Below, piece after piece: positions 42,885 to 58,088 of a DNA stretch of 64,000 nt (position 1 is its first letter; the number at the start of each line of letters is the position of its first letter). The notes under the pieces were generated by a model. The model worked only from the letters and a program-made list of their open reading frames with translations, was not told where the DNA came from and did not search any database. This stretch comes from Anolis carolinensis (lineage: Eukaryota), in NCBI RefSeq assembly GCF_035594765.1, contig NC_085846.1, positions 19,517,190 to 19,581,189 on the forward strand, given 5' to 3'. Position numbers and translations under genes: made by a program.

Positions 42885-43271
42885 GTTGGGTCTATTCAAA
42901 ATTTCTTTTTAAAAGCAAGGGTAATTCAAAAAATTATAATGTACTGATCCTGGGTAGATGGTGGTGGTGCAATCCCATTCACCAGAAATTAGTTGTTCCT
43001 CTTACATAATAAATTGTTGCTATGTTCCTTTCGACATCATAGGAAGTCAATAACACACCTATTTCAAGCAAATCTTACAGAGAAAATCCTGCAATGGATT
43101 TACCTTAAGCTTACCATAAATCAGAATCAACTTGAAGTCTCACAATGATGGGAAGGAATTATCCTTTTCCTTTTTGAACTCATTTCTTTGCAACAACAAA
43201 GCTTTTTCAACAGCTCTGTTCATGTGGTTTTTCAACAGCTCTGTTCATGTGGTTAAAACTGTATTACCATA

Positions 43272-43494
43272 GGGTTGTTGTATGTTTTCCAGGCTGTATG
43301 GCCATGTTCCAGAAATGTCTCCTAACATTTTGCCCACATCTATGGCAGGCATCCTCAGAGGTTCTGAGGATGCGTCTGAGGATGCCTGCCATAGATGTGG
43401 ACAAAGCATCAGGAGAGAATACTTCTGGAACATGGCCATACAGCCCGGAAAACATACCCTGTGATCCCGACCATGAAAGCCTTCAACAACACAT
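43272..43494. mobile_element. Penelope-like inverted-repeat insertion (decayed hammerhead motifs)
   Basis: Inverted arms; 12-bp TSD TGTATTACCATA (43260-43271, 43495-43506). Confidence 0.85.
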
Positions 43495-49489: not shown

Positions 49490-50323
49490 CAGGGGCGGTT
49501 CAACCGTTAGGCTAACTAGGCCATTGCCAAAGGCGCCATTCCCTATGGGGTGCAGTTGAGGTGCTCCCACGTGCATGTGCATGCACACATGCGCGCGAAT
49601 GTGGGAGTGCCGCAACTGCACCCCTGGGAAGATGGCACCACCCCCCTCCTCCTGCTTCGGGCCTTCCGGACGGCGTGGTCCCACCCTGGGCCTTCCAGCC
49701 AGTGTGAGCCCGCCTTCCGACTGGCATGGGTCTGCCTTCCAGCTGGCGTGGGCCTGCCTTCCAGCCAGCCTAGGCCTTCCGACCAGCCTGGGCCCACCTT
49801 CCACTCTCCAGGAGGCTACCTCCTGCCAGGTGAAGCGGCCAGCAAGCACGCACTCCGCTGCTTCCGACGAGGTCTCCAGGCTGCCTGGCCATGTTCCAGA
49901 AGCATTCTCTCCTGACATTCACCCATCCTCGGAGGTTCTAAGGACTGTTGGAAGCTAGATAAGTGGGGTTTATATATCTATGGAAAGTCCAGGGTGGGAG
50001 AAAGAGCTCTTGTCTGTTTGAGGCTAGTGTGAATGTTGCAATTGGCCAGCTTGATTAGCATTTAATGGCCTTGCAGATTCAAAGCCTGGCTGCTTCCTTC
50101 CTGGGGGCATCCTTGGTTGGGAGGTGTTAACTGGCCCTGATTGTTTCCTGTCTGGATTTCCCCTGTTTGCAGAGTGTTGTTCTTTATTTAAGCTTTTCCT
50201 TAATCCCTCCTTATTATCCAACATTTTCGCTTATCCAACGCTTTTATTTTTCAGTGATTGATTTGAGGGAGTGCGCCAAAATTCTGTTCACCTACACTTG
50301 AAAATTACCTTGGGCCAGCCCTG
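49490..50323. mobile_element. Composite non-autonomous hAT-like element carrying Penelope and MITE fragments
   Basis: Ends CAGGGGCGG / CCAGCCCTG; flanks ATTCTATG/ATTTTGTG (6/8 match); internal Penelope-like piece (about 49880-50185) and Tigger-MITE piece (about 50190-50240). Confidence 0.55.
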
Positions 50324-50959
50324 ATTTTGTGGTCAGCCTTCAATGGAAGATGACCGTAGACTTGTGTTGGAGAACCTAGAAATTGGTAAAGAGGCATTAT
50401 CTCAGGTGAAAACAGTAGCAGCTTCTTTATGCACTGTTTTTCACTTCCATTGGGGTCCCGTGAATGTGGAGGGCAAACTGTACAATGACATTCACCACTT
50501 GAAATTTCTTATTTTAATGGGACATTTCAAGGGATAAAATGACACATGTTGTACAGCATTGGTGGCACAGCAACCTAGACACTCGACTAAATAATTTCTT
50601 TTCTCTAATCATCAACACAATTCAGAATAATTATTCTGCTCGCCGGTCCTCAAGGGATATCTGGAAGTCACAGAATAATACACAACAAGTCAGAAAGCAG
50701 TTATAAGACCACTTCTTAATGCTCTGAGCTAACAACAGAACAGGCAGGACTCCAATACTCTTGAGTTCTTATATTATGCTGTATTTAACAAATGTTTACT
50801 TTCACTGATTATCAAGAAATCAATTTTCCTTGTACAGATGATGGGACTATTTTCCTCTTCAATGAAAGTGTTGACGTTTTTCATCATGGTATCAACAGCA
50901 GCAGTCTAAGGCACTAAAGCTGCATCCACTTACCAAAATAGGAGAAAGAGACTCTAAAA

Positions 50960-51225
50960 ATGAGTTTTTTCCCTTCACATGTGGTGATGATTTCAGTGTT
51001 GTTACTTTGGTTGATACCTCATATTGTGGGAAGGATGCACCCCATTGATCGTAACATAAAACCACATTTGACTAATTGCAGAGTTAATGAAACCTTCCCT
51101 GTTTTGCGTGGATTTTCTCAACCAGGAGAATTTATCATTGCACAGATTTCTTTCCAAGGCTTTTACCTGAGGAACAGAACTTATTTCAACAAATATCCCT
51201 CTCAAAGTTTGAACAAGGACGTCAT
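50960..51225 (+). CDS. V2R-D exon 1
   Basis: Hydrophobic signal ([13 protein letters not shown]), ...[12 protein letters not shown]...; AT|GTAAG donor. Confidence 0.85.
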
Positions 51226-54200
51226 GTAAGGAATCTTCTTTATCTTTACAGTAGCATTCATATACTTAGAACATTAAACAATTTGAACATTAAACAATTG
51301 TTTCTTTCCAAATGAAATATGTAGGCTATATTTAATGCATGTAAGATTTTGAGGTCTCTGGGGGCTGCCAGAAATTGGAGTTGGCTTGGTGATAGAAATT
51401 GGAGTTGGCTTGATTTGTGGTTAACAACCACAAATCTAGTGTCAATCCTACTTATTGTATTTTCATTGAACTGTGATTGGAATTTCTTTTTGAACTTTGA
51501 ATTTAATTCATTATCATTTCCCTCCATGTATTTGTTCTTCCCCTATCATTGAATGTATGTTAATATCACAGAACAAGGATCAATAACAATTTCATTTCAG
51601 CTTGCTTTTCATATGATTTTGCCAATATTTATAATTAAATTCATATTTGGAGTTAAAAATACTGACCTTGAAATTTAAATATTGAACATGGGAAATGCAA
51701 TAGATTTATTCAGTCAGTCAATCAATCAATCACAGAGCTTTGCTTAAATATTAAAGGGCTGTATTTGGATCTCTATGTTTTCAGTCATGTTAGTGCTCAA
51801 CATGGATTGACACCCTTTATTTTAGTGGCACTTATCTTTTTCAATATCCACAGGCTGGAAAGTAGAGCATCTTCATCTTCATGGTGGCCAGAGGTGCCCT
51901 ATTGAATATTAGTCTTGTGCTTTCAGGGTAAACCTTGCCCTGTTTCATGTCCCACCTTTCATTTGGGGCCCCAATCTGTTTTCAAGAGCCTCCCAAAATT
52001 GGGATGGTAGATTGGGGCCCCAAAATTTGAACCATTATAGGGGGGCTTCCCATCCATTGTCTCCCCTTCCTGGCATTCTTCTTACTTCCTGGCACCTGCT
52101 GTTGCTCCTCTGAAGTAAGGCATTCAGCTGCAGGAGGGCTCCTGGCCTACCTGCACACCTTGCTGGCTGTCACACATGCCCTGCAAACAGGCCCAGAGCT
52201 TGGCTGCAGACCCCGCCAGCCGCCAAACACACCCTCCACACTCTCTGGGTGTGTTTTTGTGTGGCGGGGCTTGCAGGCAAGGAGGCAATTTTGGTTCGAC
52301 GTGAAAACAGGCTTTCCTGTTGAGCAGATTGCTGTGTCAGAAGGGAGCTTGCTCTTTCATGCTTCCAGATAAACTGAAGACACGAAAGAAACAGGAACAA
52401 CAGTAGGAACGAATTTTGCGCACATATCTATTGAATATACATAATTCAAGGGGGATGTGGAGGGGGATACTGCTGTTTCAGCAAGTTTCCCAAAGATATG
52501 ATCCATTACAGATTTCTAAAAGCTGAACTGAGAATTCATGTCTCCCAAGCTTTATATCACTTGATGTATTGTATTCCTGAACTAAAGTCTGCATTCAAAT
52601 CTAGCTTCTTTAAGGCTAGCTACAAACTTTGGAAGACAAAGCAATGTATAAATGTGTTGTCGAAGGCTTTCATGGCCGGGATCACAGGGTTGTTGTATGT
52701 CTTTCGGGCTGTGTGGCCATGTTCCAGAAGTATTCTCTCCTGACGTTTCGCCCACATCTATGGCAGGCATCCTCAGAGGTTGTGAGGTATCCATACCTCA
52801 CAACCTCTGAGGATGCCTCCCATAGATGTGGGCGAAACGTCAGGAGAGAATACTTCTGGAACATGGCCACACAGCCCGAAAGACATACAACAATCCAATG
52901 TATAAATGTTCCCTAAACTTCCAATGTTAATTTCAAATGCATGTCAAATTAACAATATATGAAGCTGTGACAACATGATTCAGAATCCCATGTAGATTTT
53001 AAATAGAAACAGCAAGTGTCATTGCCTTGCATATCTCAGAAGACTAGCAAATGCTTTATGAAGCATCTTATGTGCAATTGTCTTATTTAAAAAATGTAAG
53101 CTTTACTGTTGCTTCATATTTTTAGAATTTTGTTTAATAGACTGTATCATTAATTACAGCGTGGTGTCAAATTACTATCAGCAAGTTCTCGCTCTGGTAT
53201 TTGCTATAAAAGAGATCAATAACAATGACATGGTTTTACCCAATATTACATTGGGATTCCAAATCTATGACAATGCCTTCAATTTCCAGATGACGTATAA
53301 GGCCACCCTGGACTTGCTTTCCACACAGCATAAATCTGTCCCAAACTATAAGTGTGGCATCCAGAACCACTTGGTAGCTGTCACTTCAGGAATTCAGTCT
53401 GACTTCTCAGTTTACATAGCAGATATCCTTAGTGCCTACAAGATTCCACTGGTAAGTTTCTGGAGAGTGTAAAAAAGTATCACACAGTGAAACATTTCAT
53501 TCTCATTCACAGATTTTGTGAATCTCTGCTGGTGGTCAAAGTTTGTTTTTAATTATTATTCAAGTAACAAGGTGGGACTGCAAAGGAGATTCGCCCATGT
53601 AAAGTGAATCAGGGAAATACTTGTGGAGGCATATCCTTAGGAGGTTGTGATAAACTGCATCTGAACTGTAATCCATCAGGCATCTGGATATCAAAGTGAA
53701 GCCATTCTGTTTGTTTGGTTGGTTTCTTATACTTGCATCTAATGCTAATGAACATGGATAACTTTAATGCATGATTAGGAAAGTATGGTACTGTCCAATA
53801 TGGTAAACAATGTATTTGCAGAAATGCAGTTATTAATTATAGCTATTTGATAATGACCTTGTGGAGGCATATTCTTAGAAGGTTGTGATAAACTGCATCT
53901 GAACTGTAATCCATCAGGAATCTGGATATTCATTAATAAATGGATATAAACTATTAGAAAAATGAACTTTTATCATTTGGAGGGCCAAAGTTTGCCCATG
54001 CCTGGGTTAATGGTTCCTATTCTTTCCTTTGTCTGTTAGTCACTTGAAGGTGCCTAACTTTCTCACTAGCCCATTTTCACAATGATCCTGTGTCATAGCT
54101 CTGCTGGGCGAGAGTGATTTGCCCAAGTCATGCCACCTGCTTCTCCCGAGTCTTCATCTAATATTCAGGGAAGTCATTCTACCCCTCTATTCTGCCTTGG

Positions 54201-57200
54201 TCAGACCACACCTGGAATACTGTGTCCAATTATGGGCATCACAATTTGAGGGAGATGTTAACAAGCTGGAATGTGTCCAGAGGAGGGAGACTAAAATGAT
54301 CAAGGGCCTGAAGAACAAGCCCTATGAGGAGCGGCTTAAAGAACTGGGCACGTTTAGCCTAAAGAAGAGAAGGTTGAGAGGAGACATGATAACCATGTAT
54401 AAATATGTGAGGTGAGCTCATAGGGAGGAGGGAGCAAGCTTGTTTTCTGCTGCTCTGGAGACTACAGTGTGGAACAACTGATTTAAACCACAGTATGGGA
54501 GATTCCACCTGAACATTAGTAAGAACTTCCTAACTGTGAGAGCAGTTCAGCAGTGGAACTCTCTGCCTTGGAGTGTGGTGGAGGCTCCTTCTTTGGAGGC
54601 TTTTAAGCAGAGACTGGCTGGCCATCTGTCAGGGAATGCAATTTTCCTGCTTCTTGGAAGGGGGTTGGACTGGATGGCTCAAGAGATCTCTTCCAACTCT
54701 ATAATTCTAACCAACTGACTGTATAACACTGTCGTGCATCATGTAAGCAAGCTATTCTAACATAAATGCTTAAACACATTATTTCCAATACATTGATAAA
54801 ATAACTCTACATTTTATTTCAGTTTGCTTCTGAATCCCTTTCTCTAGACCAGCAGGACAAAACATCATTCCCTTCCTTGTACCAGATGGCTCCAAGTTTT
54901 GCTCAGCAGTGCGATGGAATTGTACAGTTACTTTTGCATTTCAAATGGACATGGGTGGGAATCTTTGTTATTGATAATACTGTTAGACAAAGGCTCCTCC
55001 AAGCTTTGGAGCCCAGGCTTTTGAAGGCTAACATCTGTTTTGCCTTTATAAAGACATTTCATAAAGTAACTTTTGTTGATAGAATGAATAATGCATTGGA
55101 TCGTGATTTTCCAGATTTTTTGCAATGCATGGAAAGCAATGCCAATGTGTTTATTGTTAATGGTGCACTTCCAGTCATGCTTAGAATCATCCAGTACCTC
55201 CAAATGGTACCCCCAGATTCGTATCAAGGAAAGGTGTGGATTGTGACAACATACTGGGATTTTATACCAAATAATGTCTGGAAGAGTCATGACATACAGG
55301 TTTTCCATTGCATGCTATCCTTCACTATCCACTCAAATGAACCAGTAAACTTCAGAAAATTTCTTCATGGCATTAATCCTTCATGGGCAAAAGAGGATGG
55401 CTTTATCCAGGGCTTCTGGGAGACGGCCTTCAATTGTTCATTGAAAGATGCCAGTTTTAGTAAGACACAATGCACTGGGGAAGAGAAACTGGAGAATCTT
55501 CCTGGACCTCTATTTGAAATGGGTATGACTGGTCATAGCTATGGCATTTACAATGCTGCACATGGTGTGGCACATGCTCTACATTCTATGAAGGAATCAA
55601 GGTCCAAACACAGATCACAGATAGCTGGTATGAAACTGGAGCCCCAACATCTTCTGCCCTTTCAGGTAACATTTTTGCATAATCTGGGAAGAGTCTTGTG
55701 GGAGTAGAGAAATTTAGCATTGTGTAATGGTTTGAGCACTGAACTACAAATTTGAAGATCAGGGCTTGATTCCGTGTTCAGCCATGGAAATGTACTAGAC
55801 AACATTAGGTAAGTCACACACTTTGAGACACAGAAGCCCTTGTGATATGTTCACCTTAGATTGCTTGCTGAAGCTATTCCATTATGACGAAGATCAGGTG
55901 TCACTTCACTGGTTGCTATTAATTTTTTTCAAATGAACAGCCAGCCAGTGAGTTGTTTAGAGTTGTCCTTTCCTAGACCAGAGTTAGAGGATAAAGAACT
56001 TATTAATCTAATTCAGTGGTTCTCAATCTGTGGGTCCCCAGATGTTTTGACCTTCAACTCCCAGAAATCCTAACAGCTGGTAAACTAGAAGGGATTTATG
56101 GGAGTTGTAGGCCAAAACACCTAGAGACCCACGGGTTGAGAACCACTGACCTGAGTGGTATACCACCACATGTCATTTCAAAAAATGTGGATTTCTTCAC
56201 AGTAGCAGCTGGGTGTACAGGATGAGTATCCCTTATCCAAAATGTTTGGGATCTGAACTGCTTTGAATCTGGGATTTTCTTTTCAGATTTTGGAATACTT
56301 TTGTGTGTTCATACACACATTAGAATCTTGGAAATGAAACTGAGGTCTAGACATAAACATCATTGACATTTCATATATCAAAATTTATACATTTGTGTAC
56401 ACTGAGCCATCAGAAAGAGGAGACGTGACTATCTCATTCATCCATGTGGACAATTTTGTATTTTTTAGTACAGTACTTCAAATTTCAGAATTTCATATGG
56501 AGGGGTGCTCAACCTGTATTGTGTGACCTCCAGTTGTCTGCAATGTTGTTACTTAGACACCACTATAGTGGTTTCATTGAGTCAATTGTAGAAATGCTGG
56601 TAAACTACAAGCAAATTCAGTTCACCCAAGGAAGCTAACCTAGTTGAAATAAATAATAGGATTTGGGGGCATATTTTTAGATGCATGCATACTGTAGAAT
56701 TCATGCAGATTGACACCGCTTTAAGAGCTGTGGCTCAATGGCATGGAATTCAAGGAATTTTAGTTTGGTGAGGCACCAGTACTCCTTGGCAAAAAAAAAA
56801 AGGCTATATACCTGTAAAACTACAGTTCCATAACATTGAGCCATGGTGGTTCATTATATGGTATAAATACACCTTTGATGAAGAATTAATTGGGCTGAAT
56901 ATATAGTGAGCTAAACCAATACAGGGAAGGGCTATCACAGTGCGCAATCCAAGACATTTTAGTCCCTTTCTATTTTTTTTACCCTCTGGTTTAGCTCCAC
57001 ACCTTTCTCAGGGGCCTTTCATTCAACAACAGTGCTGGAGAGACTATAAGATTTAATGATGACCGAAAACTGATTGCAGGTCTGGATGTTACAAACTGGA
57101 TAACATTCCCAAATCAATCTTTTGTTAGAGTAAAAGTTGGAAGCCTGGATCCTCAGGCTCCTCTCGGTGAAGGCTTAAAAATTTTCAGTGAAAGCATTAT

Positions 57201-58088
57201 CTGGCATCCAAAGTTTAATCAGGTGAGACTGACAAAGTATATTTCCACATTTTCATTTTTTTCAAACCTTGCAACCTTACCCTTTAATATGTGTGGTTTA
57301 ATAATATTTCATTGAAAAGTGTTAAGAATAGGATATTAATAATTTGTAGACTTAGTTTAAAAAAAAACCCCAAATTGGACCAAATCTTTTTAATCTAGCT
57401 TGCATACTATCAGAACTGTTCTTCTTTAGGGTTCCATATAGTCAAACAGCCATTTAGGGCATCCTCAGATTGAATGTGGCCTCCATTTCTATATGCTTCA
57501 AAGACAAAATCCCATGGATCCCATCAAATGATGTACAGCTTGTTCCATGGGTTGCCTATGAGATTCCACCTCTGTAGCATGTAGATTTTAAAGATGAGCT
57601 GGAATAGAATCCATTTGTCTTCCTGGACTTAAAAATGCTTAGAAATGGGTATTTTTTCATGGGTTAGAAAATGGCGCATTTAGCCATTTTCAAATCTTTA
57701 TTCTGATATTTCAGTGTGGACCTTCACGTGGGTAGTCTTTTCAAGTCCTTTGATGCTCCTTCTGCTGGTATTACTCTTAGGACTTCTATTCTTTTTTTGT
57801 GTTGCTGCTGTAATTGCACACTTTTTACCTTTGAAATTTTGCAATTGCACAAGTTATTTTTTTCAAAAACTGACGTGGGCAATCCACAGACAACAAAATG
57901 AAAAGAAACAACAGTTGCCTATATGATGTGGAATAAAGTGCATGGTTTAACTAGGAATAGGCAGAGGCACATCTTATGTGATGCGAGGTGAGTGAAGTCT
58001 CCACCTCCTTTTAAGATGGAACACCATGGAATGCAACACAAAGAAGATGCTACCTTCCGCTTACCCCCCTTGTGTGATGATGCTCTAA

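Follow-up and report, generated by a model that had tools for sequence, protein, structure and literature searches.

Known Penelope-like insertions and the identity of the palindrome

The closest described system is Poseidon_Ac (PAc), a retroelement of the Penelope/Poseidon clade of the green anole. According to the available text of PMC11167929, the PAc protein is predicted to be a dimer, cuts and extends both target strands in vitro, and uses two RT start sites that were mapped in vitro on the sense RNA and that bound the tail of the element. In the same text, the PAc hammerhead cleaves in vitro only in the presence of the PAc protein and is dispensable for insertion, and RNA-seq gave no ends at its cut. 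EN+ Penelope-like insertions, as presented in the available parts of PMC8557442 (legend of Fig. 2) and PMC3846280 (Pen2a_Av), comprise an inverted, 5'-truncated copy in head-to-head orientation, a tail of 30-40 nt at one end, a TSD, and TATA and Inr-like motifs in the pLTR, and the insertion described below is similar to them in these respects.

The palindrome is located at 52642-52909 of the window, which is the whole 64,000-nt stretch of DNA that was analysed, within intron 1 (51226-53159, + strand) of a V2R-type class C GPCR gene. An earlier note on this DNA had described a near-perfect palindrome with a hammerhead motif on each strand in that intron, and this was confirmed, as was its 14-bp TSD, which is found at 52642-52655 and 52896-52909. 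The arms had been given as 101 bp with one mismatch. This holds for their inner part only, as the full inverted arms (52687-52790 and 52793-52896) are 104 nt each, with a 2-nt spacer and two mismatches, at 52764/52819 and 52689/52894. The predicted fold of the palindrome has an energy of -225.9 kcal/mol (z -27.8), and none of 200 shuffles was equally stable. Two features were absent from the earlier note: the element is lopsided, since no arm but the left one bears the 31-nt tail (52656-52686), and stem II of the motif on the + strand contains the single inner mismatch.

The long arm, which carries the tail (52656-52790, - strand, 135 nt), is a 5'-truncated PAc copy that matches the PAc template RNA printed in the available text of PMC11167929 at 134 of 135 nt when compared by eye. 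It is 99% identical to a full-length genomic copy, and the tailless short arm (52793-52895, + strand), also 5'-truncated, is 97% identical to it; the sequence in question is the PAc pLTR-ORF junction. The tail, on the - strand, is the stretch between the two PAc RT start sites as defined in PMC11167929, and the short arm begins at the second of these sites. The last five bases of the left TSD pair with the element RNA just past the long RT start. The junction between the arms (52791-52792) consists of 2 nt from the template of the short arm, with a microhomology of 1-2 nt depending on the subfamily. A one-sided tail of 30-40 nt, which is a criterion of Penelope/Poseidon, is thus present at 52656-52686. 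The insertion resembles PAc, as described in the available text of PMC11167929, in its sequence, in the hammerhead overlapping the ORF start, in the two RT starts bounding the tail, and in the AT-rich target of which both strands are cut and extended. Unlike the full PAc described there, the copy is non-coding and measures 240 bp. The earlier note was right to propose a Penelope-like element that carries minimal type I hammerheads.

Full-length PAc copies in the genome exhibit open frames of 845-867 codons. An ORF of 846 aa matches RVT_1 (1.7e-13), and a GIY-YIG-like stretch was recognised by eye in its C-terminal part; Pfam gave no family for the C-terminal 232 aa. The parent copies (L152-L159) show tandem units of approximately 2,667 bp plus inverted copies, which is the pLTR-forming arrangement. 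One of these loci, L154-L155 (G000:C1:293258000-293268500), is a large PAc array with both inverted and tandem units, in which three frames of 864-867 codons are open at 99-100% identity, indicating very recent activity.

The palindrome is probably a short copy inserted by PAc, a Penelope-like retroelement of the Poseidon type, and a single event of two-ended priming likely produced it. The hammerheads would be passengers, with no activity predicted for them in the pre-mRNA of the receptor. The element, its ribozyme and its inverted shape are already published, and the site is an ordinary copy of an abundant element. The site itself matters little for this reason; the set of copies matters more, as it bears on the way in which inverted copies and the one-sided tail of Penelope-like elements arise.

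Two RT starts in inverted pairs

We collected PAc arms from the stretches around the first 100 listed C1 matches, from 20 evenly spaced 10-kb stretches and from 31 protein-search loci, which favour long copies; L001-L030 and L140 were excluded. Selection for a TSD of at least 11 bp gave 54 inverted pairs, comprising the one in the window, 33 from L031-L139 and 20 from the protein-picked loci, with lengths of 174-6,443 bp and TSDs of 11-19 bp. A long arm faces a short arm in 51 of these 54 pairs and an unclassifiable arm in the remaining three, and neither long-long nor short-short pairs occur among them. The pairs dropped for want of such a TSD are also mostly of the long-short type, with one short-short pair, whose arms are 1.8 kb apart and which has no TSD.

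Both outer ends pair with the continuation of the RNA, over means of 2.19 and 1.33 nt versus approximately 0.33 nt expected at equal base frequencies. This pairing above chance is as expected of primers. The two arms of a pair agree at subfamily sites (50/51, with 26.5 expected, 49/52, 49/51 and 51/52), and their agreement at a CpG is within chance; gene conversion could also produce the agreement at subfamily sites. Simple junctions are found in 41 of 53 pairs, the other 12 being complex. Among the simple junctions, there are 23 at which the short arm reaches further, 9 at which the long arm does so, and 9 at which both end within 10 nt of each other. As either arm can run further, neither is a plain fold-back copy of the other. 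The excess of junctions at which the short arm reaches further (23 vs 9) would not be expected under a symmetric model. The overlaps at the junctions are mostly of 1-8 nt, a length that BLAST may overstate.

Accumulation of 5' ends at an Inr-like motif

Arm ends accumulate 90-109 nt upstream of the short start, where 61 of 164 are found versus 21 in the 80-nt interval at 120-199 nt. Among the anchored copies, however, very short arms are left out by the choice of anchor, and the peak may be raised by diverged subfamilies. The point of accumulation coincides with what we take to be an Inr-like motif, about 20 nt ahead of the ATG. In reference copies, a TATA-like run is present 31-34 nt upstream of this point, and the long arm in the window ends exactly at it. 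Genome-wide, 1,482 matches (a raw match count) end at position +2 of the Inr-like point, and about half of those listed are palindromic junctions. The count at +1 (3,598) was set aside, as 65 of the 100 matches listed begin with two subfamily-variant triplets; when checked, true ends were 1 of 7 for the commoner triplet and 10 of 13 for the others. An upstream control (438 matches) was dominated by a subfamily variant and was not used as a number.

The hammerhead cut was also considered as a source of 5' ends and was rejected, since 195 matches end there, compared with 117 and 94 at positions offset by 3 nt, some of them resembling small indels, and with the 1,482 at +2 of the Inr-like point. 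The excess at the cut is at most weak, at 1.7- to 2.1-fold over the flanking positions. The accumulation of ends is consistent with run-off from a pLTR transcript, the start of which would be placed by the TATA-like and Inr-like motifs. In the available text of PMC2377424, the internal promoter of Drosophila Penelope is TATA-less, so the promoter type is not uniform within the group.

Two-ended priming and self-priming

The copies favour two-ended priming followed by run-off, rather than the self-priming proposed in the literature. In a first step, the PAc protein would cut both target strands approximately 14 nt apart, the cutting of both strands being known from the available text of PMC11167929 and the stagger being deduced from the TSDs. 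One cut end would then prime at the long RT start, which yields the tail, and the other at the short start some 31-34 nt upstream; both sites have been shown in vitro, and the use of both in one insertion is suggested by the copies. Both cDNAs would likely run off the 5' end of the pLTR-promoted transcript, approximately 104 nt upstream of the short start, and their ends would likely anneal by a few bases, after which fill-in would give the head-to-head arms. The hammerhead would be included because it is located between the 5' end of the RNA and the RT start sites.

As a general account, we lean towards insertion of Penelope-like elements as a dimer-driven two-ended priming, in which one subunit would use the long RT site on one target strand and the other the short site on the opposite strand, with the same RNA, so that most short copies would be run-offs to the element's own transcription start. 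If this is correct, the tail reflects the constant distance that separates two active sites, the template would seldom be delimited by the hammerhead cut, and the more than 1,800 palindromes of the genome are the fossil record of the process. The published PAc in vitro system allows a direct test of two-ended priming with two fixed starts.

In LINE-1 twin priming, both target strands prime cDNA, the inverted junction shows microhomology and the TSD is kept. The PAc pairs are similar in their two-strand priming, inverted microhomology junction and TSD. In contrast, LINE-1 primers copy different parts of the RNA, with a variable second site, whereas in PAc the same stretch is copied from two fixed starts, which results in a palindrome.

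Some observations limit this model. The available text of PMC11167929 reports RT start as equal between strands in bulk and calls it non-homologous to the cut DNA, which counts against two-ended priming; the same text does not describe the pairing of start sites within one insertion or the accumulation of 5' ends. A literature search, mostly outside subscription journals, found no published statement of two-ended priming from two PAc starts. Moreover, 32 of 94 sampled arms are without an inverted partner in the fetched stretch, some of them with a direct TSD, so two-ended priming is not the sole route.

According to the available parts of PMC3846280 and PMC8557442, the inverted arm would instead result from fold-back of an antisense template that primes itself, as for rotifer Penelope elements, and the tail would be left by endonuclease resolution. 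This could explain why both arms come from the same subfamily and why some junctions are perfect short palindromes, one such centre being common to 8 of the 50 listed. However, either arm can extend further by hundreds of bases, the tailless short arm cannot template the long one, and the outer ends correspond to the two RT starts identified in vitro with the sense RNA and pair with the target. The copies thus fit two RNA-templated cDNAs better than these proposals, and self-priming is an unlikely origin of the element in the window.

Host gene and predicted hairpin

Exons 1-4 of the host gene (50960-51225, 53160-53451, 54823-55665 and 56995-57222), labelled V2R-D in the earlier note, join into 543 stop-free codons; exons 5 and 6 were located as well, outside this joining. 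The gene matches ANF_receptor, and its last exon matches 7tm_3. The element ends 264 nt from the exon 2 acceptor, in agreement with the distance of about 265 nt given previously. A search for the empty site in paralogues, with 8/8 candidates scored, was negative; seven paralogues align over the exon only, and the intron site is not shown by them. Judged by long exons, 2539-62527 of the window contains four V2R-type genes, three of which are encoded by the + strand and the fourth by the - strand.

The prediction for the host pre-mRNA is a 100-bp hairpin between the two arms, for which no host role is required. Near-perfect duplexes of 100 bp are plausible ADAR substrates, and Dicer or cruciform effects are likewise possible. 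A-to-I editing, small RNAs, or altered splicing of exon 2 or expression of the receptor gene are therefore conceivable, with the duplex so close to the acceptor of a gene in which exons 1-4 are open. Nevertheless, such an effect is improbable: there is approximately one such pair per Mb and another in the intron of a neighbouring V2R gene, the copy is young, as indicated by its identity to the full-length one, the region of the exon 2 acceptor is intact, and a crude scan of the element revealed no acceptor-like site. Any editing of the hairpin would be a generic by-product. On the scale of the genome, the long RNA hairpins or cruciform-prone palindromes, at approximately one per Mb, are likely a background source of dsRNA.

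A microRNA precursor was rejected, since the best Rfam score was 61.7 bits versus a gathering value of 70, with a 77-nt insert, and the sub-threshold hits are due to the palindrome.

The pair in the neighbouring V2R intron (43268-43490) is also a head-to-head PAc pair and is older, with the short arm on the left, the long arm on the right, a TSD of 12 bp and approximately 87% identity to the full-length copy. Single decayed PAc fragments are present on the - strand at 37914-37991 (78% identity) and 49879-50190 (66%). Intron 1 also contains a perfect 16-bp inverted repeat with a 31-nt spacer (51962-52024), probably part of another repeat, and intron 2 contains a 72-nt direct repeat (53620-53691 and 53858-53929), the units of which are 96% identical and 238 nt apart.

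Abundance and variety of the copies

The genome contains 7,013 exact matches to a 36-mer taken from the arm. There are 1,847 short head-to-head pairs whose cores are separated by 30 nt or less, and the 50 loci listed show a wide variety of junctions; the palindrome is thus not a special feature of this intron. The junction of the window occurs in 75 exact copies, and the best 40 matches to the 268-nt stretch cover 240-268 nt at 95-100% identity. These two observations would be expected if the 240-bp palindrome moved as a non-autonomous unit in its own right, with master palindromes as its source. This is very improbable, since 75 is small compared with 1,847, junctions and lengths vary continuously, the side of the tail is reversed in 2 of 30 loci sharing the same junction, and a shared run-off point together with microhomology accounts for repeated junctions. 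A MITE or self-copying palindromic element was likewise rejected, given the lengths of 174-6,443 bp, the varied junctions and the lopsided ends.

Two independent 208-bp copies (L037 and L157:8768-8975) are joined via the same 15-nt internal self-complementary stretch, which points to a preferred site of annealing or else to a central deletion that has recurred.

Hammerhead motifs in the host pre-mRNA

The - strand motif (52739-52779), antisense to the host gene, is an intact minimal type I hammerhead motif with its cut position between 52742 and 52741. The + strand motif (52804-52844), on the strand of the host gene, has its cut position after 52841 and carries a G>C change at 52819. Both arms exhibit CCU, CUGAGGA, stem II, GAAA, CGUC and AGG, and they agree with the core CUGANGA, GAAA and UH with a palindromic stem III remnant defined in the available text of PMC4209133. 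Similarly to the minimal metazoan Penelope-like hammerheads described there, they have no real stem III, a palindromic 15.1-16.1 stretch, an extra base before stem II, and G10.1-C11.1. In contrast to them, stem I has just 3 contiguous bp (4-5 bp in PMC4209133) and stem II, which has 6 bp in the - arm (6-8 bp in PMC4209133), is interrupted in the + arm. This source also reports hammerhead pairs on opposite strands, 100-700 bp apart, in Schistosoma.

The change at 52819 makes stem II less stable in the + strand motif (-2.4 instead of -5.8 kcal/mol) and is private, being present in 1 of 101 arms. A stem III formed in trans is worth -1.7 kcal/mol. A further value of -4.8 from these calculations was ignored because it forces a non-canonical pair. 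The hairpin has a predicted energy of -239.7 kcal/mol versus -155.4 kcal/mol for the fold with the hammerhead forced, which corresponds to a penalty of 84 kcal/mol. From 52810 onward, the nascent right arm is predicted to be 94-98% paired, in line with the earlier argument that the antisense arm, made first in the sense transcript, should silence the ribozyme. The hammerhead-model search called for in the earlier note gave no match to Rfam hammerhead families at E up to 10, either in 50000-56000 or in 52790-52870.

Given the preference for the hairpin, the co-transcriptional pairing and the stem II change, cleavage of the pre-mRNA by the + strand hammerhead is unlikely in these predictions. 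The two-state switch between hammerhead and hairpin formerly proposed is not supported, in view of the 84 kcal/mol cost, the private stem II change and the inertness of the PAc hammerhead without PAc protein (PMC11167929, available text). Such a switch, with cleavage after 52841, is extremely improbable even though the core, the cleavage triplet and the 3-bp stem I are intact, the PAc hammerhead is active with PAc protein (PMC11167929) and occasional cleavage of the element RNA may account for the slight excess of copies that end at the cut, since to the energy penalty, the order of synthesis, the stem II change and the weak stem III in trans are added, in the available texts, the lack of cleavage by single minimal motifs (PMC4209133) and the 172 ORF nt required of a PAc template (PMC11167929), before which this copy ends.

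Four tandem short arms with a spacing of 173 nt are present in one TSD-flanked insertion (L056-L059, G000:C1:2664521-2664902), the tandem hammerheads of which could fold as dimers.
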